A stretch of DNA of 29,704 nucleotides from a virus (IMGVR_UViG_3300038321_000078:1-29704); one strand, 5' to 3'; positions 3,876 to 22,066 are shown, numbered from the stretch's first letter. Translations and numbers: made by a program. The notes: a model not told the origin generated them from the sequence alone.

Positions 3876-3928
3876 CGTTCGTTGGCTAAAAAAAAAATAA
3901 ATCAAAAATAAACTGAAAAACAACACAT

Positions 3929-4069
3929 ATGAAGATTTACAAGTTTTTAAGAAAACATTTCCGAAACCTGCTGGCACTGCTAATAAGAGCCGAACGGTGG
4001 AAACGGGAGCCGAAAAATCAGGAAATCGTTTATCGGATTGAACTTTTTAATAAAATGAGGGGATTATGA
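3929..4069 (+). CDS. Small basic ORF, 46 aa (below track cutoff)
   Basis: My own translation: MKIYKFLRKHFRNLLALLIRAERWKREPKNQEIVYRIELFNKMRGL. Its upstream context (aacacatATG) resembles other genes here. ATGA overlap with 4066..4449. Confidence 0.35.
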   Translation: MKIYKFLRKHFRNLLALLIRAERWKREPKNQEIVYRIELFNKMRGL

Positions 4070-5295: not shown

Positions 5296-5721
5296 ATGAG
5301 CTTAATTCAGAAAATAAAAGCAGAGGTAGAAAAGGCTGGGTTGCAATTCTATTACGACAGCGGCGGAGGTCTTAATCAGATGTTAGATGAGGCTGATTTT
5401 GAAGATGGCAAATGTGTTGTATTTTCGTTTCTTTTGCAGTCAACACGGCTGACCGAGGGCAAAGAGAGCGGAAATATAGGCTTGTTTTTTTCGAAGTTAA
5501 CGAATTTTGACTTTGAATCATTGGAAAATTATGATATTCAAGAGGAATGTAAGGTATTAGCGTGGAATTTTATCAAGAAGATTAATTCAGGAAACATTTT
5601 AACGGTTGATGAGATTACGCTGACGAGGTTTTATGATGAATTTTCGGTCAATGTTACGGGGGTGGCGGTTAACGCCGTTTTTTCGGAAATGGTTGGGATG
5701 ACCGATTGTTTTGTCAGATAA
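5296..5721 (+). CDS. Hypothetical protein, 141 aa (possible neck/tail-completion protein, by size and position only)
   Basis: ORF track. No motif recognised. Confidence 0.65.
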   Translation: MSLIQKIKAEVEKAGLQFYYDSGGGLNQMLDEADFEDGKCVVFSFLLQSTRLTEGKESGNIGLFFSKLTNFDFESLENYDIQEECKVLAWNFIKKINSGNILTVDEITLTRFYDEFSVNVTGVAVNAVFSEMVGMTDCFVR

Positions 5722-5785
5722 AAATAAATCAAGAAAAAAAAATAATAATTTAGCCAAAAAATAGGCATTACAACTATCTAAAATC

Positions 5786-5952
5786 AACTATTATTATTAT
5801 TATAATTATTACGTCAAAAAAAAAAGGTTTAAAGAAAGGGTAAAAGCAGTATATATATATAATATTTAATTTAAATATAATATAATAATAGCTACTCCTG
5901 ATATATCCTACTGGCGTTTTAACTATTATTTAACATTTATAACTGATAAAAA
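5786..5952. repeat. AT-rich element A: inverted, diverged copy of element B (22751-22956), with a (TA)n core and (TTA)n arm
   Basis: The reverse complement aligns collinearly with B through these blocks: ctgataaaaa 5943-5952, actattattt 5922-5931, cctgatata 5897-5905, TA-core 5848-5864, aactattattattattataattattacgt 5786-5814. Confidence 0.7.
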
Positions 5953-5975: not shown

Positions 5976-6470
5976 ATGGATTTACGGCAGGAAATAATCA
6001 TTGCATTGACGGAGGCAAAAGACCAAATCATTTCAAACATTGATACGGAGGGCATACGTGCGTCAGGACGAACGCAAGAGAGTTTGCGGGTAGAAGATAG
6101 GGGCGAACATTTGGTACTTGTACAAGGCACGGGAGGCGCACCATTCGAGACGTTGCAATATGGTAGGGAGGGTGGCAAAGTGCCTTATGGATTCCGTTCG
6201 ATAATTCGTCAATGGATTTTAGATAAAGGAATTTCAACAACTGACATTCCTTATACCCGTAAGCCGTCGGCAAATTGGCAACCGAAGTATACACCGCAGG
6301 AGCGAGGTTTGATGTCGGCGGCAGGTGCGATAGCGGAAAAGATAAGGAAATCAGGAACTGACAGATTTACGCAACCGAATGAGAATGTTTACACGCCTGT
6401 TTTAAATGAGTTGATTGAAAAGATTGAAAAGATAATGTTAACAAAAATAACTTCTGAAATACGTAAATAA
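5976..6470 (+). CDS. Virion assembly protein, tentatively HK97 gp10-like head-tail joining/tail-completion family, 164 aa
   Basis: ASGRTQESLRVE and GGAPFETLQYGREGG resemble the tG-Lr-Si ... aPYA--vE-G pattern of gp10-like proteins (from memory). Lies directly upstream of the tape measure gene. Confidence 0.35.
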   Translation: MDLRQEIIIALTEAKDQIISNIDTEGIRASGRTQESLRVEDRGEHLVLVQGTGGAPFETLQYGREGGKVPYGFRSIIRQWILDKGISTTDIPYTRKPSANWQPKYTPQERGLMSAAGAIAEKIRKSGTDRFTQPNENVYTPVLNELIEKIEKIMLTKITSEIRK

Positions 6471-6473: not shown

Positions 6474-8927
6474 ATGGCAAGGGAAGAACAAATAATTATT
6501 GACGTTGAAATAAATGTAGGGGATACGGAACAGAGACTAGGATATGTAGCTAAAGCTATCAGTGGATTGACGGAAGAAAACAAAAAGTTAAAAAAAGAGC
6601 TGAAAGACGGGACTGGCGATTGGGCGGAAAATACAGCGCAAATAAAAGCAAATGAAGCTGAAATAAAATCTTTTAAGGTAGCAGAAAAAGACCTTTCAGC
6701 CATTCTATCTGTATCTGACAGGCAATGGCGTACTTATTCCGACAGTATTCGTGGTCAGGCGGCACAGTTGGCAGATTTAAAGAATCAGTACATATCCTTG
6801 ACAAAAGCAGAAAGGGACTCGGCAGGCGGGAAAGATATGTTGAAAAAGTTAATGGAACTCGATGCACAGGTCAAGGAGAACGATGCTTCGATGGGTAATT
6901 TTCAGCGAAATGTTGGTAATTACCCTAAAGTCTTTGATTTATCTGGAACATCAATCGGAAAATTTCAAGCGATGCTATCAGGGCTTGGAGGTACGTCCAC
7001 GACGGTTGGGGGCGTTGTAGGCACGGCATTCGGAACGATGAAAACACAAGCCATTTCACTTGGAAAAGCATTCCTTACACCGCCTATCGGTCTTATAGTT
7101 GTTGTGCTGTCAGCCATTATGTTCGCCGTTCAAAAGGTAGTGCAGGCATTCAAGAAGAACGACGAGGCAAGTACACAGTTAGAACAGGCATTATCATCTT
7201 TAACACCTATTGCAGAGGGTATTTCGTGGGTATTCGATAAATTGGCATTGGTGCTTTCAAAAGTATTTTTAGGCATCGGTAAAGTAATTAGTTCGGTGTT
7301 AAGTTTGATTCCTGCCTATAAAGATGCGGCGGCAGCGGCAAATGAATTGGTTGTTGCACAGGATAATTTGGAACAGACGGAGCGTGATTATACTATCAGT
7401 TCAGCTAAGAATAATGCCGAAATTGCGAGGATAAAAAAAGAGGCTGTAAATACTCAAAAATATACGAATAAAGAAATTGAGGAGATGTTGCAGCGTGCGG
7501 ATGATTTAGAGATGGAAAATCTGCAAAATGACAAAAACAGAAAAGAAGAATCCCTTCGACTGTTAAAAGCGAAGGCAAAACAAGAAAAAGATACATCTGA
7601 TGCAACAGCAGATGCAATAGCGGCGGCTGAGGCAGCCAAATATCAGGCAGAGGAATCATACTATTCTGGCACGATGCGCCTTGCAAGCAAAGCGAATGCG
7701 GCACGAGAAAAACAAGCAAGCCAAAACGCAGCGGCAGCAAAAGCCGCAGCAGCTGAGAGACAAAAAGAAATTGAAAATCAGGAAGCCGCAGCTGAAAAGG
7801 CTATTCAGATTTCAAAACAATTAGAGGATGCAATGGTTGAGGCTATTGAATCACAGATTGAAAGAGAAATTGCAGCGGAAAAATTAGCGACACAGCGGAA
7901 AATTGATGAATTGAACGCTGAAACTGATTTAACGGCAGAGGCGGTTAAAAATAGAAATGCACTTATTAAACAGTTAAAAATCAATTCTGATGCTAAAATT
8001 AAAGAATTAACTGATAAGAATGCGAAAGAGGAGCAAGAAAAGTTAGTCGATGCGGAGGCTGAAAAATTACGGATAAAAAATGAGGCAGCAGGAAAAGAGG
8101 CAAAAAATTTAGAGGATTTGGCGGACAGGAAACGTCAGATAATGGAGAATGAATTTAACGCTGCACGATTGAATTTAGAGCGGCTACACGCTGATGAAAA
8201 ATCATTTGCGGACTTAGCATTAACCGAAGCGCAAACGGAGGCACAGGCGTTGATAACAATGGACGCCGCAACGAAGGCAGCACTTTATCAGTCAGAGGCG
8301 GAATATACGGCAGATGTCATTGAGGCAAAAAGAAAAATTGTTGAAGCAACTGATGCTGTGATTACGGCAGAGCACAGGCAGTTGGAACAGCAAGTTGAGA
8401 GCATTCAGGCGTTTGGGGATGCGATAAGTTCTGTATTGTCTGAAATGGCAGGCGACAGCAGGGAAGCATTAATATTTCAAAAACTGATAGCTTTGGCGAA
8501 TGCGAGTTTGAATTTAGCTACGGCAATATCGGCAGCAACGGCAGCTGGAGCAATTGGCGGACCGGCGAAGATTGCGGCTAACATTGCAAGCGTCATAGTG
8601 GCATTTGCACAGGTAACGAAAGCGATGAAAGCTTCTAAAGTACCTGAACCGCCGAAGTTTGAAAGAGGTGGAATCGTTGGAGGGTCGAGCTACACGGGCG
8701 ACAATGTGATTGCGAGGGTCAACAGTGGTGAAATGATTTTGAATTTTGAGCAGCAAAAAAAGCTGTTCGATATGTTGGCAATGAATAATAATGACGGCAG
8801 AGGGATGATTGATTATGATTTATTAGCGAGGGCGATGTCAAGGCAGCCGGCACCCGTAATGATTTACAAAGAGTTTACTGATTTTCAGGAGAAAATAGTT
8901 ACATTTGACGAACATATAAAACTTTAA
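6474..8927 (+). CDS. Tail tape measure protein, 817 aa
   Basis: Largest gene. Long Ala/Glu/Lys-rich coiled-coil stretches, internal hydrophobic segments (PPIGLIVVVLSAIMFAV) and a C-terminal GGIVGG...DNVIARVNSGEMIL motif typical of tape measure proteins. Confidence 0.8.
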   Translation: MAREEQIIIDVEINVGDTEQRLGYVAKAISGLTEENKKLKKELKDGTGDWAENTAQIKANEAEIKSFKVAEKDLSAILSVSDRQWRTYSDSIRGQAAQLADLKNQYISLTKAERDSAGGKDMLKKLMELDAQVKENDASMGNFQRNVGNYPKVFDLSGTSIGKFQAMLSGLGGTSTTVGGVVGTAFGTMKTQAISLGKAFLTPPIGLIVVVLSAIMFAVQKVVQAFKKNDEASTQLEQALSSLTPIAEGISWVFDKLALVLSKVFLGIGKVISSVLSLIPAYKDAAAAANELVVAQDNLEQTERDYTISSAKNNAEIARIKKEAVNTQKYTNKEIEEMLQRADDLEMENLQNDKNRKEESLRLLKAKAKQEKDTSDATADAIAAAEAAKYQAEESYYSGTMRLASKANAAREKQASQNAAAAKAAAAERQKEIENQEAAAEKAIQISKQLEDAMVEAIESQIEREIAAEKLATQRKIDELNAETDLTAEAVKNRNALIKQLKINSDAKIKELTDKNAKEEQEKLVDAEAEKLRIKNEAAGKEAKNLEDLADRKRQIMENEFNAARLNLERLHADEKSFADLALTEAQTEAQALITMDAATKAALYQSEAEYTADVIEAKRKIVEATDAVITAEHRQLEQQVESIQAFGDAISSVLSEMAGDSREALIFQKLIALANASLNLATAISAATAAGAIGGPAKIAANIASVIVAFAQVTKAMKASKVPEPPKFERGGIVGGSSYTGDNVIARVNSGEMILNFEQQKKLFDMLAMNNNDGRGMIDYDLLARAMSRQPAPVMIYKEFTDFQEKIVTFDEHIKL

Positions 8928-8931
8928 GATT

Positions 8932-9834
8932 ATGAATTGGACGACACACATAAACGATACGGATTGGATAATTGAAAGCACAGCAATTATTGATAGCGGA
9001 ACAAACTACTTCTACAAATGGGATAAAAGTTTTATCCGTATTACTATGAAAACGGCAGGTGTAAAAACAATAACCGTAGAGGGGGTTAAGTATACGATGT
9101 ATTCAATGAATGAATATGTAATTATAGAAATTACTGAATTTGTTCGTTCAACGTCAAGTGATTTGATATTATATTTTAGCGATGATAATTCGTTTTATTT
9201 TGTATTTCAAGCGTCAACTATTAATGGTGCGAGTATTAGCGAATTTAAATCAAGAATACCAGCTGAAATACCTTATATTGCTACAACAAATCCTTTTTGG
9301 GTGCAGTTGTCAGAAAATATGATGACAAAAACAATAGTGGATGAAATCATAGACTATAATGTTACAAGTAATCCTGATGGTGGCGTTTTGTCGTATAATT
9401 GGGTTGAAGAGGTATCACACGGTGCATCATTATATCTGTACACAACTACAGGTTATTATTCGCATTTCATTACGCCTTCATGTACGACTGATAAGATTTT
9501 AGTCGAGTGGGTTTCGGCACAAGGAAAGAAAAAATCATGGTGGTTTCAGGTAGAGAGAACGATTATCGGAAGCGATAAACAGTTGAATTTGCAGACGATG
9601 GAAAACGGATATAATACGTTGAAAAATAAACGTGTTTCCATTCAAGTAAGCCACAAAAACGCCGATATGACGACACAGACATATTTATCTGACATTGCAA
9701 TTTCAGATGAGGTTTACATTTATGAGGGCACAACAAGAATGCAGGTTCGATTGGCAGATAACAGTTTCGATATTACACAACGGAAAAGGGATGTTCAATT
9801 GATAATTAATAAATTCGCTTATGATACGATTTAG
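8932..9834 (+). CDS. Distal tail protein candidate, 300 aa
   Basis: Position immediately after the tape measure gene. No motif recognised. Confidence 0.4.
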   Translation: MNWTTHINDTDWIIESTAIIDSGTNYFYKWDKSFIRITMKTAGVKTITVEGVKYTMYSMNEYVIIEITEFVRSTSSDLILYFSDDNSFYFVFQASTINGASISEFKSRIPAEIPYIATTNPFWVQLSENMMTKTIVDEIIDYNVTSNPDGGVLSYNWVEEVSHGASLYLYTTTGYYSHFITPSCTTDKILVEWVSAQGKKKSWWFQVERTIIGSDKQLNLQTMENGYNTLKNKRVSIQVSHKNADMTTQTYLSDIAISDEVYIYEGTTRMQVRLADNSFDITQRKRDVQLIINKFAYDTI

Positions 9835-11605
9835 AATTGTTGGTAGTGGTTATTTAGAATTACCTTCTGATTTCAGCTTTTCGTTTAATTATAACAACGG
9901 CATTTTTGCCTTTGACAGTATGCAATTAAGCCGGAGCGGTGAATTTTCGATACCACGAACCCCAGCGAATGATTTGTTACTGGATTTTTCACACAACCCA
10001 TCAAGCGACGGAACGTTTATACGGAAAAAGAAACAGGCAGAATTACACTATTCCGGTGGAAAGATTGACGGTTATCTTTTCATAGGGAAATACACTGGTG
10101 GAACCTATTCAGGTAGTTATTCAGCCGTTTTCGTTTATGGCGAATTATCTGGATTAAAATCCATAAGCGAAAAAGGGAGCATAGGAACGTATTTGAACTT
10201 GAATTTGACGGATAGTGTTTATGTCGACCCCACTTCGATAGTGTCAGCCTATAATTCAAGTGGTATATTACCCGATACATTTAAGTTGTACAATTATAGA
10301 AATTTAATACAAGATGTAAATAAATTGACAAATGCGATAAATATGTTGCCAACGGTCAAATTATCATATTTGATGTCATCGGCAGCTACAGCGTTGAATA
10401 TTAACGTTGACACAACAGGATTAGGTATTGGAAGAGAAGCGGTCGGATTAATATTATCAGGAAATAAGGCGAGCCCGTCGTTGACGACGGTAAACGTTTC
10501 CGGAATAACAAAAACGTCCTCTGCAAATCCGTTGAATTTTTCGGGTGGAAGTACATTTTTTGAGTTGACGACACGTAATTTCAAGTACAAGCACAAAACA
10601 GCTATTGGTTGGTACACGACAGAAAACGTAACTGTGAATGTTTTACGTTGCAAGGCTGATTTGACGATTTTATTTGAAACGGCTTATTACGATTTTGCAT
10701 GTGTTACCGGAATTGGGGATACATTTTTAAGCGACGGTAGTTTTGAGGGTTGGTTTCGTAATATTTATCCGAACACAACGATCGACCTTAAAAAAGGCGA
10801 TTATTTTACTTTTACAAACAAGAATGACTATGACATATTCAACGGCAGACCGACGGATGATTATGATGAGATGATAAATCTGTCATTTAAGGTTTATTCT
10901 GGAGATGTGAACACGGTTGATGTCTCGGAAACATTATATTTAAGGGATAATCTCCCTGATGTTTCGTTGCTGGATTTGGTAAAGATTTTTGCAAACCTTT
11001 TCCGGTGCGGTGTACAGTACGCCGCGTCGACAAATACTATTTCATTTTTTAACTTTGAATTTGACAAGTCAACGGCGGAGAAGTTGGATGATGTATTAAT
11101 CGAGATTAAATCGGTTGACAGAACGTTTTTAAATTATGCGAGGCGTAATGTTGTCAAATTCAATAATGAGGATTATGTTGATAGGGAGCACAACGTTGAG
11201 TATATGATTGACAACGACAGTTTATCTGACGAAAAGACATTATTCACGATACCGTTTTCAGAAGGAAATGCAAATTTTAGTAAGTCAGTTGTTGTAAACG
11301 ATTTTGAATTAGCTTCACCTTACAAAAAAACGGCAAAAAAGCAAACCATTTGTGTTGCAAGTAATACGGCAGGAGTGAATTATTTAATGCACATTTCGAT
11401 GTTGTATGAAAATTTCGATATTTCGGAAAAGCTGAAAGATATTATTTTCAACTCGACAACAGTTGTCATGTCGGTAAAAATGACGGCAGGTGACTTTTTG
11501 AAAATAGGAAACACAAAGGTATTTTCATATAGAGGAAAACATTATTGTTGCATTTTCGGCACACATTCCGGTCAAATCGCAGAATTAACGTTGATAAAAA
11601 TTTGA
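9821..11605 (+). CDS. Tail tip / baseplate or receptor-binding protein candidate, 594 aa
   Basis: Second gene after the tape measure gene and last gene before the terminator. No motif recognised. Confidence 0.4.
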   Translation: MIRFRIVGSGYLELPSDFSFSFNYNNGIFAFDSMQLSRSGEFSIPRTPANDLLLDFSHNPSSDGTFIRKKKQAELHYSGGKIDGYLFIGKYTGGTYSGSYSAVFVYGELSGLKSISEKGSIGTYLNLNLTDSVYVDPTSIVSAYNSSGILPDTFKLYNYRNLIQDVNKLTNAINMLPTVKLSYLMSSAATALNINVDTTGLGIGREAVGLILSGNKASPSLTTVNVSGITKTSSANPLNFSGGSTFFELTTRNFKYKHKTAIGWYTTENVTVNVLRCKADLTILFETAYYDFACVTGIGDTFLSDGSFEGWFRNIYPNTTIDLKKGDYFTFTNKNDYDIFNGRPTDDYDEMINLSFKVYSGDVNTVDVSETLYLRDNLPDVSLLDLVKIFANLFRCGVQYAASTNTISFFNFEFDKSTAEKLDDVLIEIKSVDRTFLNYARRNVVKFNNEDYVDREHNVEYMIDNDSLSDEKTLFTIPFSEGNANFSKSVVVNDFELASPYKKTAKKQTICVASNTAGVNYLMHISMLYENFDISEKLKDIIFNSTTVVMSVKMTAGDFLKIGNTKVFSYRGKHYCCIFGTHSGQIAELTLIKI

Positions 11606-11631
11606 TTTGACAATTAAATGTTGTATATTTG
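11601..11631 (+). promoter_or_regulatory. Candidate promoter (TTTG-19 nt-TATATTTG)
   Basis: TTTG 11601-11604 and TATATTTG 11624-11631, at the spacing expected for the Bacteroides -33/-7 consensus. It lies upstream of a terminator, so the function is uncertain. Confidence 0.35.
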
Positions 11632-11697
11632 TAAGGTAGAGAGTTTTGTATTAGTTTTTATAGTTTTTCATAGGTTTTTTTTGAATTTATTGATGCG

Positions 11698-11732
11698 AAG
11701 CGTGCTGACTGTGAAGTTGGCACGTTTTTTTT
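11698..11732 (+). terminator. Rho-independent terminator ending the tail operon
   Basis: Stem CGTGCT (11701-11706) / GGCACG (11719-11724), 12-nt loop, then T8 (11725-11732). Confidence 0.75.
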
Positions 11733-11821
11733 AGCACTTACCGTTAAAAAGGTAAAAAAATGTATACTATTTTAAGATATATATAATAAAAGTTAAATAA
11801 TCGCTAAAAATTTGGATAAAT

Positions 11822-11852
11822 TTTGGTATATCAAAAAAAGGTAGTATATTTG
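11822..11852 (+). promoter_or_regulatory. Candidate early promoter (TTTG-19 nt-TATATTTG)
   Basis: TTTG 11822-11825 and TATATTTG 11845-11852, about 46 nt upstream of the first early ORF (ATG 11899). Confidence 0.5.
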
Positions 11853-11898
11853 TATCATAAAGAAAGAGATAAACTAAACAATTAAAAAAAATACAACT

Positions 11899-12063
11899 AT
11901 GAAAACAACAAGAAATTTAACAGCACGTTACTTTGAAAGCTCGAAACTTTCAAGAATTTACGAAAATGGAAAATGGATCTACACAACCGACGAGGACTTG
12001 TCAAATTGCACCGAAAACGACATTAAGTATTTTTTAAGGAGTGGTGATTACTGGGCAAGATAA
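11899..12063 (+). CDS. Small early ORF, 54 aa (below track cutoff)
   Basis: My own translation: MKTTRNLTARYFESSKLSRIYENGKWIYTTDEDLSNCTENDIKYFLRSGDYWAR. It has the same aaaaacaactATGAAAACA start context as neighbouring early genes. Confidence 0.5.
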   Translation: MKTTRNLTARYFESSKLSRIYENGKWIYTTDEDLSNCTENDIKYFLRSGDYWAR

Positions 12064-12339
12064 ATAAACAACCTCCCGCCTGCGATGGCATCAAAGGCGG
12101 GAACAATTGAAAAAAGTTCTTTGAAATACTGATACAAAAACAGCTTAGCAAGTTGCAGATATGGTTGTAACGGTGGTGTTAAGTAATCGAAAAAGTCCTG
12201 CGTTCGTTGAAATGACGATAAAAGAGGACAAATCTCCCCGATAGTTCGGAAATGCTGAAAATTACATTCAGTTCGGGTCTCGAAGCCCGGCGGGGAACAA
12301 AAACAAAATGGAAACTATTTATAATTAAAATACATAACT
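12064..12339 (+). other. ORF-free, comparatively GC-rich structured region (candidate ncRNA, leader or cis element)
   Basis: Hairpin TCCCGCCT (12074-12081) / AGGCGGGA (12095-12102). A second module has closing stem TCCCCG (12235-12240) / CGGGGA (12291-12296) enclosing hairpins CTGAA/TTCAG (12255-12271) and CGGG/CCCG (12274-12289). Both modules are followed by ACAA. Confidence 0.3.
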
Positions 12340-12669
12340 ATGATAATAGCAAGCAAAATAAACTTATACACATACAAGGAATTAAAAAGCCAAGTAAAAT
12401 ATGATAAGGCAGAAATTATGACAGATGCGTGGTGGTATTTTCGCAAAGGTGGAATGACATTTAACGAAGCCATGAAAAGAGCATGGGCTTGGAATAGGCG
12501 TTGGGTTACAGAATGTCGTGATGCAATCTTAAAATTTGAAGCAATGGATAAGAAAATTCAAGCAGACTATGAAGCAATAAAAAACAAACCTGCTGAAAAT
12601 GCAAGCACATGGATGAACGCTGAAACAATGAGTAATCATTATAATTCAAATTCATATAAAGGAGATTAA
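12340..12669 (+). CDS. Hypothetical early protein, 109 aa
   Basis: ORF track. Trp-rich (AWWYFRKGG...KRAWAWNRRW). No family recognised. Confidence 0.7.
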   Translation: MIIASKINLYTYKELKSQVKYDKAEIMTDAWWYFRKGGMTFNEAMKRAWAWNRRWVTECRDAILKFEAMDKKIQADYEAIKNKPAENASTWMNAETMSNHYNSNSYKGD

Positions 12670-12695
12670 TTGATTTTTTAAAAACTAAAAAAAAT

Positions 12696-12887
12696 ATGAA
12701 AACACAAGAAATTAAAAGCAGCGTTTATGAAGTAAAAATTGGACGCAAATGGTTAAGGGTTAGAGCTACAAGTTTGAAAGCCTTAAATGAATGGTCAAAA
12801 GAAAATAATGTGTCTGATTGGCGCATGGTTGGTATGATGTCAATTGCAGAAACAAAAGAAAGTCAAAAGTTAAGAGTAGTAAAATAA
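12696..12887 (+). CDS. Hypothetical early protein, 63 aa
   Basis: ORF track; ATGAAAACA start context. Confidence 0.65.
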   Translation: MKTQEIKSSVYEVKIGRKWLRVRATSLKALNEWSKENNVSDWRMVGMMSIAETKESQKLRVVK

Positions 12888-12906
12888 CAACTAATTAAAA
12901 AACACT

Positions 12907-13146
12907 ATGAAAACAAAATTTTACAAATGGGTCTCACCGTTTAGCGACGGTATCGACCAAGTAGTAATGATTCATTCCGGCATATCATGCCGAGTGAATG
13001 ATTTTGGAATAGATCAAAAAATTGAATACCTCAATTATGAGGTAATCACAGATGACATGACCATTGCAACAAAAGCGGAATTTTTAAGAGTTTACAGCAA
13101 AGTAAACGGCGAAATGTTAAGCCGTATGTTAAACACAATTTTATAA
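12907..13146 (+). CDS. Hypothetical early protein, 79 aa
   Basis: ORF track; ATGAAAACA start context. Confidence 0.65.
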   Translation: MKTKFYKWVSPFSDGIDQVVMIHSGISCRVNDFGIDQKIEYLNYEVITDDMTIATKAEFLRVYSKVNGEMLSRMLNTIL

Positions 13147-13172
13147 ACAACAACAAAAAAATTTACAAAAAA

Positions 13173-13664
13173 ATGAAAACAGGAAAAGTAATTGGCAATT
13201 TCGATTGCCGTGTGTGGAAAAAAGACACGCCAAAACAAGCACGTCAAATGGTGGCACAGGGCGAAAGAATTAATTTATCGGTTGCATTTGATGAAGCCGA
13301 TTTAACGGATGAATTGAAAGAGTTCACACGGTTTCACGAGAAAAGTGGAAAATGGTATGCAAATATTAAAGTATTTCCGAAGTCATGTAAAATTTTTACA
13401 GCTTCAGCGAAACAAATTGATTTTCCGGATTATAAAAAAATCGACGGAGGTAGATTTGAAGTAATCGTTGAATTTGTGATTAAGCACGGCAAAGAGAAAA
13501 CAACGGAGCTTAATGGACTTTATGCCAATGCTATTCAGATTATAAAAAGAGCAGATGTTCCTTTTGAGCCGATAGCAGGCGTAAGTGATGACTTTCTTGC
13601 CGGTAATGCACCCGACCCATTTGGAGGGGAGGATGATGACGAAAAAACTAATTTGCCTTTTTAG
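13173..13664 (+). CDS. ssDNA-binding (gp2.5/DUF2815-like or SSB-like) protein with an acidic C-terminal tail ending LPF, 163 aa
   Basis: C-terminus ...PDPFGGEDDDEKTNLPF mimics the bacterial SSB tip DDD[IL]PF. Lies immediately upstream of the YqaJ exonuclease, the usual partner position. The OB fold was not verified. Confidence 0.55.
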   Translation: MKTGKVIGNFDCRVWKKDTPKQARQMVAQGERINLSVAFDEADLTDELKEFTRFHEKSGKWYANIKVFPKSCKIFTASAKQIDFPDYKKIDGGRFEVIVEFVIKHGKEKTTELNGLYANAIQIIKRADVPFEPIAGVSDDFLAGNAPDPFGGEDDDEKTNLPF

Positions 13665-13709
13665 CGCAATCAGTGACTTATAATAATTCAAAAAAAAACA
13701 AAACAACTT

Positions 13710-14594
13710 ATGAAAACAGAAAATCACAAAAATGAAATTGAAGCCACTCGAAAGGGTGGCTTCGGAGGAAGCGATGCGAAACTATTTTACAAAATAGGTT
13801 TGAAAGGGTTATCGGCATTGAATAATACGGACAAAAAGAGAATCCGGGTCGCAAAAGGAATTGACGAGTACAAACCTATTACGATGAATGAAGCGATGCA
13901 GAGAGGTCATGATTTCGAGGATTGGTATGCGGAACAATCATTTGCACCAATTGCCGACAGAGAGGCTAAATTATCATGTCAATTAGCAAACAATTTTGAT
14001 ACCTTTTTCCATGCTGACTTTTCGGACGGATTTAATGAGGTTTGGGAATTGAAATGTGTTCAAAGTCCTGACAATGCGGTTCGGGATTATTATGAACAAT
14101 TGCAATGGCAACATTTGATTGGAGCAAGGATGCATTGGCTGGTAGTGTGCGACAGTAGCCAGTCATTTGAAAATGGTACTAAAATGCCTGAATTAATTGA
14201 ACGCAATGAACATGTAATTGAAATCCTGCGAAATGGAATTAAATTGCTCGATAACAATTGGGATAATTTGGATTTGGAGGTGGGCGAAGATTGGAGCGAA
14301 AACGACTTAATGCCTTTTGAAAAAGAGGACATTGCGGTGTTCACTTCTTATTTGCAACGGATAAAACAGTTGGAAGAATTGGCGGAAGAAAGCAGGTTGA
14401 AAGTGTTCAACTTTATGAAAGATAACGGAATAAAGTCTCTAAAATCAGATTATTACACCGTTACTTATGTTCCTGAAAGTACGACTTCAACGCTCGACAA
14501 AAAGAAACTTTTAGCCGAACATCCAGAAATAAAGGAAAGTGATTATCAGAAAACAGGTCAGAAAAAAGCGTTTATAACAGTTAAATTAAAGTAA
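13710..14594 (+). CDS. YqaJ / lambda-Exo-like PD-(D/E)XK recombination exonuclease, 294 aa
   Basis: N-terminal RKGGFGGSDAKLFYKIG matches the YqaJ GIGGSDA motif. HADFSDG...EVWELK fits D...ExK. Confidence 0.7.
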   Translation: MKTENHKNEIEATRKGGFGGSDAKLFYKIGLKGLSALNNTDKKRIRVAKGIDEYKPITMNEAMQRGHDFEDWYAEQSFAPIADREAKLSCQLANNFDTFFHADFSDGFNEVWELKCVQSPDNAVRDYYEQLQWQHLIGARMHWLVVCDSSQSFENGTKMPELIERNEHVIEILRNGIKLLDNNWDNLDLEVGEDWSENDLMPFEKEDIAVFTSYLQRIKQLEELAEESRLKVFNFMKDNGIKSLKSDYYTVTYVPESTTSTLDKKKLLAEHPEIKESDYQKTGQKKAFITVKLK

Positions 14595-14609
14595 TCTAAA
14601 AAAAATAAA

Positions 14610-14972
14610 ATGCAAAAATCAATTTTAATCATTGGTCGCCAAGGTAGTGGAAAAACAACAAAGGCTAAAGAAATTGCAAGTCAGTTTCAAAATGATGAAG
14701 TAGTATTCATCGATTATCGTTGGGAAATAATTCAGGATGACCCATTTTTATTTTCGGAATGCACCGATAAAACAAAACTGGTAGTGTTTGAAGGTTTTTA
14801 TGACATAAACCAAGTTGAAACATTTTTCAATGCGGTTTCAAATCCAATTAATGTCAACAAGAAAATGAAAAGACCTTTTACGATTCAACCCAAATTCGTT
14901 TTTGTGTGTCAAAGAGAAATTGAAGAATTAGAAGCGCGTTTTTACAGAACATTTGATATAATAGAATTATAG
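14610..14972 (+). CDS. Minimal P-loop NTPase, 120 aa
   Basis: Walker A GRQGSGKT, Walker B-like LVVFEG, and a possible motif C-like FVFVCQ. Confidence 0.55.
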   Translation: MQKSILIIGRQGSGKTTKAKEIASQFQNDEVVFIDYRWEIIQDDPFLFSECTDKTKLVVFEGFYDINQVETFFNAVSNPINVNKKMKRPFTIQPKFVFVCQREIEELEARFYRTFDIIEL

Positions 14973-14974
14973 AT

Positions 14975-15298
14975 ATGAAACCAACCGAAATCACGATGCA
15001 AATCGTCAAGAATTTAGGTAATTATGAAACGTGCAGACTTGAAGCAACGTTCACGCTCGATGAAGGCGACGATTTAACGGATGCGTTCAAATCAGCACGG
15101 CAACAGTTGGAGAATGCCTACGAAACGGCTTACAATTTGAAAAAGGACAACCGAAAAGTATTAGAATTAAACTCGAAAGAGTTTGACAGAGTTTGCAAGG
15201 CGTTACACGAAGAAAAAACGGATATTGATGAATTGCAAAAGTTTTTTAAGATATCGGATGAGATAATTAGATATTTCAGAGAAAATAAATTAATATGA
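14975..15298 (+). CDS. Hypothetical protein, 107 aa
   Basis: ORF track; 2-nt gap from the upstream gene. Confidence 0.7.
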   Translation: MKPTEITMQIVKNLGNYETCRLEATFTLDEGDDLTDAFKSARQQLENAYETAYNLKKDNRKVLELNSKEFDRVCKALHEEKTDIDELQKFFKISDEIIRYFRENKLI

Positions 15299-15332
15299 AA
15301 ATTAAAAAATAAACTAACTAAAAAAAAACACT

Positions 15333-15752
15333 ATGAATGCAATTAAATTTTATGATTTAGAAAAAATCAAAACAAAAAAAGGTGGAAACACAAAACTTGA
15401 TGGAAATGTAGTGCAAATTTATTGCAGAGGATTTGACAAAAATACAAGTCCTAACTATTGCTTATTTTTTCCTTTTAACCTACCTGCAATAGCCGACGGG
15501 TATAAAAGAATAAATTTTGCAAAAAACGATTTGACGGGAGAAGTTTTTATTTTGTTCAGTAAAACAGATGGCTTTCTGCTAACACACGGGAATAAAACGA
15601 AAACACATAACGTATGTTCCAAAGGAATAGTTACTTTGTTTATGGATTTGATAGGAATGAAATATCAAGATATAAATACTATTTACAATCTTTCAGAGAA
15701 TTTGAGTAGTAATAACGAAACGATTGTTTACAAAGTTTTGTATAAAAACTAA
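15333..15752 (+). CDS. Hypothetical protein, 139 aa
   Basis: ORF track; aaacactATG context. Confidence 0.7.
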   Translation: MNAIKFYDLEKIKTKKGGNTKLDGNVVQIYCRGFDKNTSPNYCLFFPFNLPAIADGYKRINFAKNDLTGEVFILFSKTDGFLLTHGNKTKTHNVCSKGIVTLFMDLIGMKYQDINTIYNLSENLSSNNETIVYKVLYKN

Positions 15753-15789
15753 AAATTAAACGGTGGGGCTGGGCGAGGGCAGTAAAAAT

Positions 15790-16011
15790 ATGAGAAAGCA
15801 AGTTAAAAAACACGTTAGAAAAACAAAGTCAGCACAGCAATTACTGAATGCTGAAATACGGTTGGCTGTAAGAAAAGGAGAACTCCCTTTTACTTTTATT
15901 GATAACGATGAAAAGACTTATCGGAAAATCGTTTATCAACTGGCGAAAGAAACCGGACAAAAGTTATCATGCACTAAAATTGAAGATAAATGGATTATAG
16001 ATATAGCCTGA
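15790..16011 (+). CDS. Hypothetical basic protein, 73 aa
   Basis: ATG 15790 preferred over the track's GTG 15763. Overlaps the primase start. Confidence 0.6.
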   Translation: MRKQVKKHVRKTKSAQQLLNAEIRLAVRKGELPFTFIDNDEKTYRKIVYQLAKETGQKLSCTKIEDKWIIDIA

Positions 16012-16853
16012 TGAAAGGCAGTAGGAAATTCATTTGTCCTGCATGCGGGGATAAAAAGAAAACATTTGTGCCGTACGTCGATGAAAATAATAACATAGTC
16101 GATTTGGATAAATGGGGGCGCTGTGAAAGAATTCACAGTTGTGGTTACATAAGCTATCCGAAAACGAATGGCAATGAATGGGAGCGGAAAATAATTAAAA
16201 GGTCTGTAATTGTCAAGCCGAAGCCCATTGAATTTGTGAGTAAAAAGATTGTAGAAGCTACATTTCACAATTTCAAACATAACCCGTTCTTTATGTTTTT
16301 AGCACGTACATTCGGTATGGAAACGGCTTACGAATTGCAGGCGAAATACAATATCGGAACGGCTACAAACGGAGGTACTATATTTTGGCAGGAGGACAAA
16401 GACGGCAATTTCAGGACAGGTAAAGTAATTTATTACAATCCAAACGGAAAAAGGAATCACGACCGGAAGAGCTGGTTTGTTCATTCAAAAATAAGACCGG
16501 ATTTTGTTTACCAACAATGTTTCTTCGGGTTGCATTTGGCTGATGAAACGAATCCGATAGCACTTTGCGAGAGTGAAAAGACAGCCGTAATGATGTCAGT
16601 TTTTCAACCTGAATTTACTTGGCTTGCAAGTGGCGGGAGTGAAATGCTGAATAATATACGGCTTGCTGAATTACCTCGACTTGATAAAGTCTTTGCTGAT
16701 AACGGGCAAACAGAAAAATGGGAAATGAAAACACGCAATTTCGATGGCAGAAAGATGGATGCTTCTGTTGATAATGCCGTTGCTGACGGGGTTATCACTC
16801 AAGGAAGTGATGTGTTAGATTTGGTTTTGGAATCAATTAATCAAAAAAAATGA
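15990..16853 (+). CDS. DNA primase candidate (N-terminal Zn-ribbon plus Toprim-like domain), 287 aa
   Basis: CPACG...CERIHSCGY zinc ribbon. Toprim-like acidic motifs ALCESEKTA and FADNG. The N-terminus YRYSLMKGSRKFICPACG resembles Bacteroidota mobile-element primase-like proteins (from memory). Confidence 0.55.
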   Translation: MDYRYSLMKGSRKFICPACGDKKKTFVPYVDENNNIVDLDKWGRCERIHSCGYISYPKTNGNEWERKIIKRSVIVKPKPIEFVSKKIVEATFHNFKHNPFFMFLARTFGMETAYELQAKYNIGTATNGGTIFWQEDKDGNFRTGKVIYYNPNGKRNHDRKSWFVHSKIRPDFVYQQCFFGLHLADETNPIALCESEKTAVMMSVFQPEFTWLASGGSEMLNNIRLAELPRLDKVFADNGQTEKWEMKTRNFDGRKMDASVDNAVADGVITQGSDVLDLVLESINQKK

Positions 16854-17317
16854 AAAAAATGAAAACAAATTATTTAGGTTACAGAGTTAATAGAAATTCA
16901 ATAGATTATGCAATTAGGTTTAGTGATAAATTCAAAGAAGATATTAAAGATGCAATGCCTGAATTTGAGTTTTGGATGTCTAATTTTCATTCTCCAATAG
17001 AATTAAAAATTGGAGATAAAATATTAATTTCTCCAAATGCGCAAATTGAAAATACAAAAGAAGGTGTTTTATATGATGAAAAATGTTTGTATGAAATATA
17101 TGGAGCTATTTCTGGAGAATTAATGTGTAAAGTCGTTGATATTTATTTTAATTTGTCGTATTATTCTGACATGACAAAAGATAAGTATAATAAGGAATTT
17201 GATGAAATGGATAAAGTAAATTTTGATAAAAATTTATATTATTATTTTTATGATGATTATAGAAATTCAAGATTTACAATTGTAATCGAGCCTGTTGAAA
17301 AACCTATAAAAAAATAA
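16850..17317 (+). CDS. Hypothetical protein, 155 aa, markedly AT-rich gene (possible moron)
   Basis: ORF track. Visibly lower GC than the flanking primase and helicase genes. Tyr/Asn/Lys-rich. Confidence 0.65.
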   Translation: MKKMKTNYLGYRVNRNSIDYAIRFSDKFKEDIKDAMPEFEFWMSNFHSPIELKIGDKILISPNAQIENTKEGVLYDEKCLYEIYGAISGELMCKVVDIYFNLSYYSDMTKDKYNKEFDEMDKVNFDKNLYYYFYDDYRNSRFTIVIEPVEKPIKK

Positions 17318-17320
17318 TCT

Positions 17321-18709
17321 ATGACAAATTACGAGAAAATAATAAAAGTAATGTGCTGGGAGGGTTACGATGGCGAAAGTCCGGAACAGACTTACCAGAG
17401 GAAAATAGGCAATGCTATCCCGCCGCCGAATGAAATAATTGACATCGTGGAGGTGGGAGGGTTGCAGAAATGGGCGGAGAGGTTGGAGGTTAGTTCACAA
17501 GTGGAGCTTTACAGCAAGCTATTGAAAGCAATTAGGTTGACAGTTGCAGACCCGATATTCAATGACAGAAAGTTAGTGAACACTTTTCCTCCTTTTGCTA
17601 ACTTCTTTTATTTCTGCCAGAAGTTAGACCGAAACGGGAAAACCGCAACGGAAGCGGAAGCAATTGCCGATATAGCTTGGAATGGTGTTATCTGTAAACG
17701 AAATAATCAAAGTAATATCCAGCAGATGTTTTCAGTTAAACCCGATGCTGACAAATACAAAGCTATTTCTGAAAAGATACGGCAGACATGGGGATTCTCG
17801 GAAAAGGAAATTGATGCATTCCGGTATTTTGTTTGTCAGACACGGCACGAGGGACACAATCCTTCATTGAATAAATCAATTTATCTATGGGGGAAAAAGA
17901 AGGGCACAGGAAAAACAACGGTAGGCAGGGCAATAATTACAATCCTTAACGGCGATAAATGGTGTAATTACGGCACGTATGAAAGCACGTTAAACAAAGA
18001 AATGGGTTACAATGACCATGATTTACCACTTGCAGCACTTTATAATTGTGTTTTCCTTGATGAAACAGTTCCGAAAGATAGCCGAAAAAGTTACGGAGGT
18101 GTAAAAAGGATGCTTACTTCTAATTCTTTTAATTACAACCCGAAGTTTAGGCAGGTGTTAACAATCCCATGTAAAAGACTTTATATTTTCACGTCAAACG
18201 ATGACATTGCGGAGTTCATTCAGGATGAAAGCGAAAGGCGGTTTGTTTCCATTGAGATTGACCGTTCGCCGGATCAGTTGATGTTTGATGAGATTTACGA
18301 CATTTGGAAAGAGTTTGCCGTAAATTGTGAACCGGAGGAGGATTGGAAAGAGTGGTATGATAGTTTCGCACTTGTCAACGGATTAGAGAAACTAAATATC
18401 GACGAGGTTAAGAATGAATTGTTTCTGCGGAAAGAGGAGCTTTTTGCTACAATGAACGGTGCTGGTAGTTATTTCACGATAAAATCGCTGGCGAATGCAC
18501 TCTTCAAAAATGAGCCAACACGGGAGCAACGGCATTCTGTAAAGTCAGCAGTTGCGGAACTTTTTCACGACTGCAAGACAAAATCAAACGATGCGCTTTA
18601 TTCAAAAACATCATGCCGGGAACGGCTATTGGATATCGAAGCGGAAAAATCAAAAGGAGAAATAGAGGAAACAGAAACAGACGACAACGGCTCGGGATTG
18701 CCGTTTTAG
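17321..18709 (+). CDS. SF3-type (VirE/D5-like) replicative helicase/NTPase with an acidic C-terminal tail ending LPF, 462 aa
   Basis: Walker A GKKKGTGKTT, Walker B VFLDET, motif C IFTSND. C-terminus ...EIEETETDDNGSGLPF. Confidence 0.65.
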   Translation: MTNYEKIIKVMCWEGYDGESPEQTYQRKIGNAIPPPNEIIDIVEVGGLQKWAERLEVSSQVELYSKLLKAIRLTVADPIFNDRKLVNTFPPFANFFYFCQKLDRNGKTATEAEAIADIAWNGVICKRNNQSNIQQMFSVKPDADKYKAISEKIRQTWGFSEKEIDAFRYFVCQTRHEGHNPSLNKSIYLWGKKKGTGKTTVGRAIITILNGDKWCNYGTYESTLNKEMGYNDHDLPLAALYNCVFLDETVPKDSRKSYGGVKRMLTSNSFNYNPKFRQVLTIPCKRLYIFTSNDDIAEFIQDESERRFVSIEIDRSPDQLMFDEIYDIWKEFAVNCEPEEDWKEWYDSFALVNGLEKLNIDEVKNELFLRKEELFATMNGAGSYFTIKSLANALFKNEPTREQRHSVKSAVAELFHDCKTKSNDALYSKTSCRERLLDIEAEKSKGEIEETETDDNGSGLPF

Positions 18710-18714
18710 AAAGT

Positions 18715-19002
18715 ATGAAAATGAACGAAAATCCATTTAAAAAAGACACTCCAATGGACGTGGAGTTTAAAGATGAAGATTTCCTTTTATTTAACAAAAG
18801 ATATTTTTTCGCTGACAAAATATTCGATAAATATGAAATAGAAGTAAATGCAGGAATGTTCAAGGTAAAGTTTGATATAGAATTTATACACAAAGAAAGT
18901 AGAAATGTTCTTGCAAAAGGAAGGTATAGCAGTTTGAAAGAACTAAATGAAGATGTAAAGATTTTCTTATTAAAGAATGAGTCTTTTTTGATTAATCTAT
19001 GA
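18715..19002 (+). CDS. Hypothetical protein, 95 aa
   Basis: ATG 18715 preferred over the track start 18613, which overlaps the helicase gene. AT-rich. Confidence 0.6.
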   Translation: MKMNENPFKKDTPMDVEFKDEDFLLFNKRYFFADKIFDKYEIEVNAGMFKVKFDIEFIHKESRNVLAKGRYSSLKELNEDVKIFLLKNESFLINL

Positions 19003-19229
19003 AAACATATCATTACAGTATCTTATTCAACGGTTGCGATATACGGCATCACGGAGAATTTGACAGCTCATTTTATGATGAGAAACAAATTGTCAGAAAA
19101 GCGAAAAAGGAAATCGAAGCCAAGCTCCCAGAGTGGGGGTTTGGCGGGCAGGATATTACGGAAACGGAAATATATTACATAGAGAATGATGAAGAAAAAG
19201 AAGTGTTTAATTATAAACAAATTGATTAG
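18999..19229 (+). CDS. Hypothetical protein, 76 aa
   Basis: ATGA overlap with the upstream gene; ATGAAAACA start. Confidence 0.65.
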   Translation: MKTYHYSILFNGCDIRHHGEFDSSFYDEKQIVRKAKKEIEAKLPEWGFGGQDITETEIYYIENDEEKEVFNYKQID

Positions 19230-19265
19230 AAGTAGAAACTTAAATATCAACAACTGCAATAGTTT

Positions 19266-19312
19266 AAAACGCCTAACGGCTATTGCTTATACACTTTGTT
19301 AGGCAACGTTTT
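19266..19312 (+). terminator. Hairpin with short T-run (weak terminator or attenuator)
   Basis: AAAACGCCTAAC (19266-19277) pairs with GTTAGGC-AA-CGTTTT (19298-19312). Core stem is GCCTAAC/GTTAGGC. Confidence 0.35.
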
Positions 19313-19315
19313 ATT

Positions 19316-19489
19316 ATGAAAAAATATAGTTTTAAAGCAATAATTGATGGTAAGGAATTTTTTCCGAAAGGATTTTATTATCAAGGTAAATTTATAATAT
19401 TGGTAGGTTGTGAAAAATCAGACCATACAATTAGAAGAAAGGAAAAAATTACTGATGTTGAAATAGTGGTGACTGAAAATGTTGGATAA
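19316..19489 (+). CDS. Hypothetical protein, 57 aa
   Basis: ATG 19316 preferred over the track's TTG 19283, which lies inside the hairpin. Confidence 0.55.
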   Translation: MKKYSFKAIIDGKEFFPKGFYYQGKFIILVGCEKSDHTIRRKEKITDVEIVVTENVG

Positions 19490-20822: not shown

Positions 20823-20838
20823 AATAAAATTAAATAAA

Positions 20839-21072
20839 ATGATTATGAGTACAAAAAGCACAATCTTATTGACTAATGATAATGAGCATTGGTACAATGA
20901 CTGTTCAGAGCCGTTAACCGGCATTGACGAAAAGCCATACAAAGATGTAATTACGTTGGAGTTTAGCAAAAAAAACATACGTATAGACTTAAACGATGAT
21001 GAAGATTTGGTGATTTCTATCATAAATCCAAATTGTGAGATATACGATGTTTTGTCAAAATTTATGAAATAG
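20839..21072 (+). CDS. Hypothetical protein, 77 aa
   Basis: ORF track. Confidence 0.65.
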   Translation: MIMSTKSTILLTNDNEHWYNDCSEPLTGIDEKPYKDVITLEFSKKNIRIDLNDDEDLVISIINPNCEIYDVLSKFMK

Positions 21073-21098
21073 AACCGGGTTTATAAAATTAAATAATT

Positions 21099-21335
21099 AT
21101 GGTACGATTTGTTGAAATGACTGGAATTTACTTAGACGATAGAAAATCGTTTGGGTTTTACAATACCGTGACTGATGTTTTTGTCGGACTTAGTGACTCA
21201 TACGCTTTTGACAGCGTAAAGGACTTTGAAATGTGTTACAACAAAAATTGCGGAGTGGATTATGAAAGAATGAAATCACTCATTCCGCAGTCGTGGTATG
21301 ATTATGAGAAAACGCTGTCCGAAAATTACCGATAA
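21099..21335 (+). CDS. Hypothetical protein, 78 aa
   Basis: ORF track. Confidence 0.65.
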   Translation: MVRFVEMTGIYLDDRKSFGFYNTVTDVFVGLSDSYAFDSVKDFEMCYNKNCGVDYERMKSLIPQSWYDYEKTLSENYR

Positions 21336-21411
21336 CGCTTTGCAGCTATATTTAGTTGCGGATTTAGAAGAACAAATTATCAAATTAGTAATAACTTAAA
21401 TAGAAAGAAAA

Positions 21412-21615
21412 ATGTCAAATAAACCACAAAGACCGCAATTGAATATAGCTGTTGTTAGCGGTAGTTTTTATTGGGTAAAACCATTTAATAACAGTGAATT
21501 TGAACCTGCAAAAGCAAGACTTGATTACAGAGATGAGATATGTTTTGCATTTACGGATGGAAGTACAATGAGTATTAATGCGGTATGGGAAGTCGAGCCT
21601 TTAAATGACCGCTAA
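21412..21615 (+). CDS. Hypothetical protein, 67 aa
   Basis: ORF track. Confidence 0.65.
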   Translation: MSNKPQRPQLNIAVVSGSFYWVKPFNNSEFEPAKARLDYRDEICFAFTDGSTMSINAVWEVEPLNDR

Positions 21616-22059: not shown

Positions 22060-22066
22060 GGCAATG

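Follow-up and report, generated by a model that had tools for sequence, protein, structure and literature searches.

The viral DNA analysed here (IMGVR_UViG_3300038321_000078:1-29704; 29,704 nucleotides, the whole of which is referred to below as the window) carries two AT-rich non-coding sequences, A and B, in inverted orientation. The two proved to be homologous, and we interpret them as two copies of one cis-acting DNA element and not as RNA genes or mobile elements. Judged from the comparison with related phage contigs, these paired inverted cis elements represent a real, conserved and previously undescribed sequence family. As regards their function, we tentatively propose, by analogy with oriL and oriR of phage SPP1, that A and B may be iteron plus unwinding-element sites of the phage replication system (probability about 0.37). 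The two copies were delimited in an nhmmer search with a profile hidden Markov model built from seven copies of the element:

22751-22960, plus strand: element B (match 22752-22960, E = 4e-33), with the early-gene terminator on one side and the promoter-like box of the packaging/late genes on the other
5784-5952, minus strand: element A (match 5949-5784, model positions 4-196, E = 8e-17), between the genes for a 141-amino-acid (aa) and a 164-aa protein

The profile gave exactly two matches in the window, one on each strand and each spanning nearly the full model, and it also recovered held-out copies from contigs of related phages (B of L060, 7e-25; A of L185, 2e-17; A of L190, 1e-10).

The inverted similarity of the two regions had been noticed by eye in a preliminary description of this DNA, and it was upheld by formal Smith-Waterman alignment against shuffled controls. 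The reverse complement of 5786-5952 scored 89 against 22751-22956 (approximately 70% identity, with indels, over about 150 bp), as compared with 31.4 +/- 5.0 for dinucleotide shuffles (z = 11.6; 0 of 1000 reached 89). In direct orientation A scored only 45 against B, and the control scores for the reversed-only and complement-only sequences were 36 and 42, respectively. Because AT-rich low-complexity DNA can fool shuffles, further controls were added. None of 2572 natural AT-rich windows from unrelated genomes (167 bp, 13-23% GC; many seeded with the element's own 23-mer) reached 89, the maximum being 60, and other AT-rich windows of the same genome scored at most 35. The null scores peaked at 53-60, against 89 for the two elements. 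The sequence blocks listed in the preliminary description (AAATAATAGT, TATATCAGG, the TA core and (TAA)n-TAGTT) were all present in the alignment. The TATCAG/CTGATA motif likewise occurs twice per element (22755-22760 and 22835-22840 in B; 5898-5903 and 5943-5948 in A), and there are 28 copies of it genome-wide.

The assembly is circular (bases 1-77 equal 29628-29704), which gives a unit of 29,627 bp. Allowing for this terminal 77-bp repeat, A and B split the circle into arcs of about 12.5 and 16.8 kb, much as had been described. Two other claims had to be abandoned. The gap that holds A (254 bp) is not one of the two largest, being exceeded by that at 11606-11898 (293 bp) and also, if a weak 50-aa open reading frame (ORF) is disregarded, by that at 12064-12339 (276 bp). 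A supposed third (TA)n region at about 11760-11800, i.e. within the gap at 11606-11898, is not a member of the family, since it gave no profile match and is not kept in the related contig L183.

The internal structure of the element was derived from alignments A1-A3 and motif searches. In the orientation of B, it comprises TnTCAGG, AAATAATAGT in forward orientation, a spacer of about 20 bp, ACTATTATTAT (the 9-mer inverted), a (TA)n/TATTAT core, about 25 variable bp, CTATAGGnTTTTCAAAACGC and two tandem AATAATAGT-type sites. Each copy contains 3-4 AATAATAGT-type 9-mers (2-3 direct, 1 inverted) around the core: one on the left, one degenerate and oppositely oriented at the core edge, and a tandem pair on the right, the members of which start 15 bp apart in L043, L060, L053 and L002. 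Exact AATAATAGT has four matches in 29.6 kb, all within A or B, and six in L043, all in the B gap or in A; the 11-mer with at most one mismatch has 11 matches (1.35 expected). Within the family, conservation is highest in the right-hand repeat block ATAATAATAATAATATAATAATAGT. Each element also has AT-only inverted arms of about 20 bp (ACTATTATTATA... / ...TATAATAATAGT), which are internal to the conserved unit and surround a centre of 80-90 bp. The individual parts are located as follows (dG, nearest-neighbour free energy):

22807-22815, plus strand: left copy of the 9-mer AATAATAGT in B (exact 9-mer search)
22842-22891, unstranded: (TA)n/TATTATTAT core of B, dG -42.2 kcal/mol, z = 4.15, the least stable 50-bp stretch of the genome
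22845-22855, minus strand: degenerate 11-mer ATAATAATAAT at the left edge of the B core, opposed to the outer 9-mers
22911-22930, plus strand: conserved core CTATAGGCTTTTCAAAACGC with the near-palindrome TTTTCAAAA, overlapping a sigma-70-like -35 match
22931-22955, plus strand: right-hand repeat block ATAATAATAATAATATAATAATAGT of B (alignments; exact 9-mer at 22947)
5922-5930, minus strand: left copy (B orientation) of the 9-mer AATAATAGT in A (exact 9-mer search)
5882-5892, plus strand: ATAATAATAGC, adjoining the A core and opposed to the two outer 9-mers of A
5841-5890, unstranded: (TA)n core of A, dG -44.6 kcal/mol, z = 3.69, the second least stable 50-bp stretch
5787-5814, minus strand: right-hand repeat block of A (reverse complement: GTAATAATTATAATAATAATAATAGT), including the exact 9-mer 5787-5795

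Nowhere else in the genome is the duplex as unstable as in the two cores, which had been described as being of the unwinding type; B and A rank first and second at 50, 100 and 200 bp (z = 3.3-4.2). Inspection by eye led to the rejection of two other readings of the repeat blocks: a sigma-54-type core (GG-N10-GC), the spacing of which is inconsistent among the copies, and DnaA boxes or Bacteroidetes -7 boxes, from which the 9-mer blocks differ in each case by one base.

A structured RNA was rejected as well. For A and B there was no Rfam match at the gathering score and none credible at E <= 1. RNAalifold, run on both strands, gave -1.6 and -0.3 kcal/mol with 1-2 compensatory pairs, its sole "structure" being the AT-only inverted arms, which are energetically negligible, and single-sequence folds were null against shuffles (z +0.29 and -1.03). 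These results point to an element that acts at the DNA level. The small reading frames in the two gaps fared no better: L002 lacks a counterpart of the 62-aa minus-strand ORF (5599-5787) whose start lies at the edge of A, and a 37-codon frame in the B gap is broken in L045.

Related uncultured phage contigs were found via homologues of the large terminase (TerL), the 164-aa protein and the SNF2 helicase. The element family is present in five lineages that bear A (the window, L043, L002, L185 and L190), and its distribution is as follows (TerL identity in brackets):

Window type (also L041, L042): B identical; A in the window only
L045 (78%): B present; contig stops before the A site
L043/L044 (76%): B and A present
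Ga0116170_10000809 = IMG/VR 3300009694_000064 (89%; L002, L025, L053): B and A present
SRR30424971 phage: B in L060 and A in L185, contigs from one sample
L190/L191: B site outside the recovered contigs; A present

Both elements can be read on one contig in the window, L043 and L002/L025. B always lies on the gene strand, between the VRR-NUC-like gene or terminator and the packaging genes, and A always on the opposite strand, between a gene for a 140-158-aa protein and that for the 164-aa protein (in L002, A abuts the stop codon of the upstream gene). Conservation in relatives had been proposed as a check on the pair, and wherever both sites are readable the elements occupy the same sites in the same relative orientation. 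The window B scored 338-346 against its orthologue in L045, approximately 136-145 against those in L043, L044 and L060, and 148-154 against those in L025 and L053. Orthologous inverted copies of A were found in L043, L002, L185 and L190. Across the element-bearing lineages the proteins differ by 11-36%.

Four more distant relatives differ at these sites. L188 shares structural, terminase and ParB genes with the window, whereas its replication module is of another kind (ERF, DnaA_C-like); no AT-rich island is found there at the A or the B site, in 21 kb. In L184 (1198-1384) and L186 (9079-9264), whose helicase is more diverged (50-56%), the A site is occupied by an AT-rich (TA)n island with a different repeat, TCTAAGGGG. 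No match to this repeat was found at a B site among the loci examined; the L184 contig ends 443 bp past the SNF2 gene. In L003 (3496-3818) an AT-rich (TA)n island with TTTCTAA repeats lies between the tape measure gene and the gene upstream of it. We also observed a variant of the island at the early/late junction of L061 (1677-2188), in the gap that precedes a ParB-methyltransferase fusion gene and TerL, where at least five AAGTATAGA repeats in both orientations surround the perfect AT palindrome TATTAATATATATTAATA.

The preliminary description had considered a binding array for the ParB-like protein encoded downstream of B and an invertible promoter or segment. That A and B form a centromere- or parS-like array of this kind, or that they are substrates for inverting the 16.8-kb arc, is highly improbable. 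In the window, L045, L043 and L025 the ParB-like gene does follow B directly, but in L060 a near-identical B is found directly upstream of TerL, with no gene for ParB or for the TET-associated glycosyltransferase (TAGT) there, and L188 has a ParB homologue (54%) and no element. In place of a parS-type site there is only the weak near-palindrome TTTTCAAAA. The inverted arrangement would permit a flip-flop of the arc; however, about 70% identity with indels over 150 bp is a poor substrate for homologous inversion, and the genes are all on one strand in every assembled relative. All B copies are on the plus and all A copies on the minus strand in the assemblies of the profile-defined family. No invertase, integrase, recombinase or transposase was found among the 37 of the 47 listed plus-strand ORFs covered by the PHROGs, Pfam and NCBIfam scans from which the gene layout was also drawn (the other ten are all of 82 aa or less), which agrees with the earlier claim that recombinase and integrase genes are lacking. 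In the more distant L054, the core block CTATAGGCTTTTCAAAACGC, which is kept in all B copies, is present in inverted form at the B site, and thus the orientation has changed at least once in evolution.

The two elements differ in the degree to which they are conserved. The nucleotide identity of B is 0.66-0.92, as compared with 0.63-0.80 in alignable flanking coding DNA:

B, window vs L045: element 92% (peak of 95-97% at 22754-22873); flanking coding DNA 79-80%; rest of the gap 58-84%
B, window vs L043: element 67%; flanking coding DNA 63-66%; rest of the gap 38-49%
B, window vs L025: element 66%; ParB N-terminus 78%, upstream gene unalignable; rest of the gap 43-45%
A, all three pairs: element 50-58%; flanking coding DNA 63-73%

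The identity of B relative to its flanks and to the rest of its gap indicates that this copy is under purifying selection. A as a whole diverges faster than the neighbouring genes, yet it retains the repeat blocks. Moreover, A resembles B more than it resembles other copies of A: the window A scored 89 with its own B but 52 and 53 with other A copies, and the A of L190 scored 99, 99 and 92 with three B copies (54 with the B of L043), as against 73, 53 and 45 with A copies. This suggests that A stays B-like either through gene conversion from B or because both copies have to suit one and the same binding partner. On either account, A and B would be coupled.

Some of these features might be expected of a selfish or neutral sequence, i.e. 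an old insertion resembling a miniature inverted-repeat transposable element (MITE), or a duplication, which is functionless and stays similar through gene conversion only. The AT-only inverted arms around the 80-90-bp centre, the rapid divergence of A, the different AT islands at the A site of L184 and L186 and at a neighbouring site in L003, and the lack of any island in L188 are in keeping with such an origin. We nevertheless regard it as unlikely, given that the conservation of B equals or exceeds that of coding DNA and is far above that of the remainder of its gap, and that there are exactly two copies at fixed sites across lineages. None of the bacterial loci seeded with the 23-mer (at least 120) was a real copy, these being low-complexity chance matches limited to the seed (Smith-Waterman scores of at most 67; nhmmer, at most 17 bits), and a pattern scan of IMG/VR found the element only in the two related contigs. 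The MITE-like insertion raised in the preliminary description is disfavoured on the same grounds, with the absence of a real copy referring to the bacterial matches listed. The likeness to MITEs and to Bacteroides-type invertons is confined to the size of the non-coding unit (approximately 130-200 bp) and its inverted AT-rich arms; the two fixed-site copies, the lack of copies among the sampled bacterial matches listed, the failure to find an invertase or transposase, and the uniform orientation in assemblies set A and B apart from both.

Among the possibilities that had been named at the outset, a replication origin or unwinding element fits best, a packaging site would suit B only, and the ParB array, MITE and invertible promoter are disfavoured. 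The proposal that A and B are origin-type sites is based on the repeated 9-mers, their position beside the most meltable DNA of the genome, the apparent selection on B and its coupling with A, and the presence of replication and recombination genes. It is also based on the absence of the elements from L188, with its different module, and on the TCTAAGGGG variant in L184 and L186, since different repeats alongside a more diverged helicase are what iterons show when specificity changes. The genes concerned, all on the plus strand, are the following:

13710-14594: RecE-like recombination exonuclease (phrog_434)
15990-16853: Zn-ribbon plus DUF6371 protein (Pfam; PHROGs "DNA primase" in the 15990-18709 region)
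Within 15990-18709: 155-aa ORF between the DUF6371 and helicase genes
17321-18709: DUF5906/VapE-like SF3-type helicase (Pfam)
22314-22598: VRR-NUC-like nuclease (phrog_93, phrog_5702; the L188 counterpart matches PF08774 VRR_NUC)

Homologues of the DUF5906 helicase and of RecE occur in the element-bearing relatives, and L188, the one contrasting genome, lacks both that module and the islands. We infer from this that the replication genes at 15990-18709 encode candidate trans-acting factors of the elements. Neither the helicase nor the DUF6371 protein had a match when PDB sequences were searched.

According to this proposal, a sequence-specific protein of the replication module, with the Zn-ribbon/DUF6371 protein and the SF3-type DUF5906 helicase as candidates, would bind the 9-mers. 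B, at the early/late junction, would be the main origin, melting at its TA core, and A, located 12.5 kb from it among the late genes, would provide a second locus for binding, acting as a secondary origin or as a bound roadblock. A roadblock at A might stall the fork and so bring about a switch to recombination-dependent concatemer synthesis, for which the RecE-like exonuclease and the VRR-NUC-like nuclease would be used, as proposed for SPP1. With recombination of the single-strand-annealing type, direct repeats would delete an essential arc, and this could explain why inverted copies persist and are homogenised by conversion.

SPP1 has two origins about 12-13 kb apart on its circularised genome, each of which combines direct repeats with an unwinding element rich in AT; the late gene order is interrupted by oriR, where bound gp38 has been proposed to stall forks and to set off the theta-to-sigma switch by means of a Holliday-junction resolvase, an exonuclease and an annealase (PMC6316719, PMC3485210). 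The phage described here shares with it a small siphovirus genome with two related but non-identical elements some 12-13 kb apart, each with short repeats together with a region rich in AT, one of which interrupts the late gene order, together with genes for an exonuclease and a junction-resolving nuclease. In contrast to SPP1, there is no sequence similarity, A and B are intergenic (oriL lies inside the SPP1 initiator gene), the module is of the SF3-helicase/DUF6371 type instead of gp38/gp39/DnaB-type gp40, and the promoters are of the Bacteroidetes type, pointing to a host from another phylum. The inverted orientation and the tracking of B by A are documented for the present pair only.

Other replication systems offer partial parallels. 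In iteron theta origins of plasmids and of lactococcal and lambdoid phages, which have a DNA-unwinding element (DUE), clustered short repeats also flank the least stable duplex, and here too the repeats look lineage-specific, with another repeat at the A site of L184 and L186. Iteron plus DUE origins are normally single, unlike the opposite-strand pair found in this genome. The satellite phage P4 reportedly needs two iteron regions in cis, ori and crr, which lie kilobases apart and are served by one alpha primase-helicase. Its iterons (TGTTCACC) are not restricted to A and T, crr, at a distance of 4.5 kb, is a tandem duplication, and alpha unites in one fused protein the primase-like and helicase functions for which the present phage has separate genes.

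Several observations weigh against the proposed role in replication. Neither GC3 skew nor AT3 skew, taken per gene, shows an interpretable step at A or B. Unlike SPP1 oriL, neither element adjoins the replication genes, about 4 kb separating B from the helicase gene upstream of it. The correlation with the replication module derives from one contrasting genome, that of L188, whose transcription layout is different as well. Conservation of A is lower than that of its flanking genes (0.50-0.58 vs 0.67-0.73), and AT-only 9-mers could be sites for a host architectural protein. Finally, B is always at a terminator/promoter junction and A is just upstream of the tail genes, which fits a regulatory role equally well.

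Such a role is possible and constitutes the main alternative, although in our view a doubtful one. A and B would be orientation-independent sites for the control of late transcription, placed upstream of the packaging/head block (B) and the tail block (A), where an activator or repressor of phage or host origin binds AATAATAGT and the AT core serves as a UP-like or bending region. Both elements do lie just upstream of late gene clusters, and B is situated between the early terminator (22704-22738) and a TATATTTG box with a -7 but no -33 element, as expected of an activator-dependent promoter. The AT-rich island of L003, one gene further on and directly before the tape measure gene, would fit as well. 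In L043, L185 and L002 a TATATTTA box is present in the gap preceding the gene next upstream of the tape measure, but in the window the A gap has no TAnnTTTG box on either strand. In a variant of this explanation the conserved core would serve as a promoter in its own right, firing in the sense direction at B and in the antisense direction at A: a sigma-70-like TTCAAA-17-TATAAT (22921-22949, plus strand) is present in the B core, and its homologue in A is TTGACG-16-AATAAT (5817-5790, minus strand). However, the whole asymmetric unit is inverted at A, so that a directional promoter would fire antisense, and nothing is conserved downstream of the putative start. The host-type promoters of this genome are TTTG/TAnnTTTG, not TTGACA/TATAAT, and the spacer is as conserved as the sigma-70-like hexamers, which favours protein-binding repeats over a promoter.

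The position of B also brings to mind a packaging recognition region (pac or cos), which would be read by an N-terminal domain of TerL resembling the small terminase (TerS), with A as a non-functional or accessory duplicate. B is immediately upstream of TerL in L060, L059 and L054, only the ParB/TAGT cassette intervenes in the window, and the extra N-terminal domain of TerL matches PF20901, PF18932 and HTH_23 in relatives, with a separate 137-aa gene in L188. On the other hand, L188 has a terminase of the same type and no AT-rich element, and adjacency to the terminase holds for B only. This explanation also leaves it unclear why an inverted A has been kept at one fixed site in five lineages while staying B-like, and a second inverted pac site has no known use. 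A packaging site is possible for B only and, as an account of the pair, quite unlikely.

There is also a more elaborate way in which the pair could serve replication, which we consider very unlikely: A and B would be strand-specific initiation sites on opposite strands, with synthesis starting at B on one strand and A firing, or arresting the fork, only when the fork arrives. The asymmetric scheme is comparable to mitochondrial OH/OL or to the ssiA/ssiB sites of RSF1010, set 12 kb apart. If this were true, the mechanism would demand the inverted geometry and conversion would keep the two copies matched, a mode of replication undescribed for tailed phages of Bacteroidetes.

All the long ORFs of the window are on the plus strand. 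Apart from the replication genes given above, the layout is as follows (plus strand throughout):

Spanning the assembly junction and ending at 5721: collagen-like fibre, lysis genes and head-tail genes
5296-5721: gene for the 141-aa protein, the last before gap A
5976-6470: gene for the 164-aa protein (phrog_31246), directly upstream of the tape measure gene
6474 to 11605: tape measure, then tail genes
11606-11898: 293-bp gap after the tail genes (no strand)
11899-22598: early genes, including the RecE-like exonuclease, Zn-ribbon plus DUF6371 protein, DUF5906/VapE-like SF3 helicase, SNF2 helicase and VRR-NUC-like nuclease
22704-22738: intrinsic terminator of the early operon, a 12-pair hairpin followed by a T-run, just upstream of B
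23028-23035: Bacteroidetes-type -7 box TATATTTG without a -33 TTTG, 27 bp upstream of the ParB-like gene
23062 (start): ParB-like protein (profile scans)
23813 (start): TAGT, PF20691 (profile scans)
24750-26327: TerL, 525 aa (profile scans)
26548 (start): portal
28062 (start): protease-like/capsid region

The terminator stem carries a T to C change in L042 and L045, by which a G-U pair becomes G-C. In L041, the copy of this phage from another sample, a 36-bp deletion at about 3900-3935 (window 22685-22720) takes away the 5' half of this hairpin, and L041 and L042 have an extra gene for a 283-aa protein before the VRR-NUC-like gene. Boxes of the TATATTTG type occur just upstream of genes at 1052, 11624, 11845, 23028 and 26536, with TTTG 19 nt upstream at the two early boxes (11624 and 11845), and a TATATTTGACG box is kept downstream of every copy of B. 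Judging from the TATATTTG boxes, from one window protein that matches a Porphyromonas-named N-terminal domain and from a TerL homologue in a Flavobacterium metagenome-assembled genome, the host is probably a member of Bacteroidetes. No close isolated phage was found by megablast, the best TerL matches in tblastn being about 23% identical, and the window contains no tRNA or tmRNA.

Several other features of this genome were recorded. The gap at 11606-11898 has two well-formed promoters of the Bacteroidetes type (TTTG, 19 nt, TATATTTG; boxes at 11624 and 11845), one on either side of a unit of some 90 nt, which ends in a 9-pair hairpin plus T8 at approximately 11701-11737 (uncalled by the scan; region not kept in L183) and could be a small early RNA or leader. 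The ParB-like and TAGT genes between B and TerL (23062-24727) look like an inserted DNA-modification cassette; in L060, L059 and L054 TerL follows the gap directly. No TET/JBP dioxygenase was seen among the ORFs scanned. Just upstream of the -7 box of the ParB-like gene, at the -33 place, there is a perfect 12-bp tandem repeat (AAACCGAAAAAA x2, 22999-23022), with one copy in L045 and none in L043 and L025. TerL has about 100 extra N-terminal residues, and in L188 (9591-11296) a separate 137-aa PF20901 (Sf6_terminase) gene precedes a 431-aa TerL, which suggests that a small-terminase-like domain is fused to TerL and that the window has no separate small terminase gene. Two early ORFs, 16850-17317 (which holds the third least stable duplex stretch, 17176-17275) and 19283-19489, have a very low GC content at third codon positions (GC3), namely 0.14 and 0.16 (about 0.36 for the genome), and may be recently acquired genes.

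To conclude, we have described a sharply defined, conserved pair of cis elements of about 200 bp which, together with a specific 9-mer, provides a concrete experimental handle. To our knowledge, essentially no mapping of replication origins or of late-gene control exists for phages of Flavobacteriia/Bacteroidetes, or for those with primase-helicase modules of the DUF6371/DUF5906 type. The tracking of B by A constitutes a clean, small case in which inverted non-coding repeats of one phage genome evolve in concert. Should A and B prove to act in the manner of the SPP1 origins, this would mean that a design consisting of an origin and a distant second origin or roadblock arose in an unrelated lineage with a different type of initiator.

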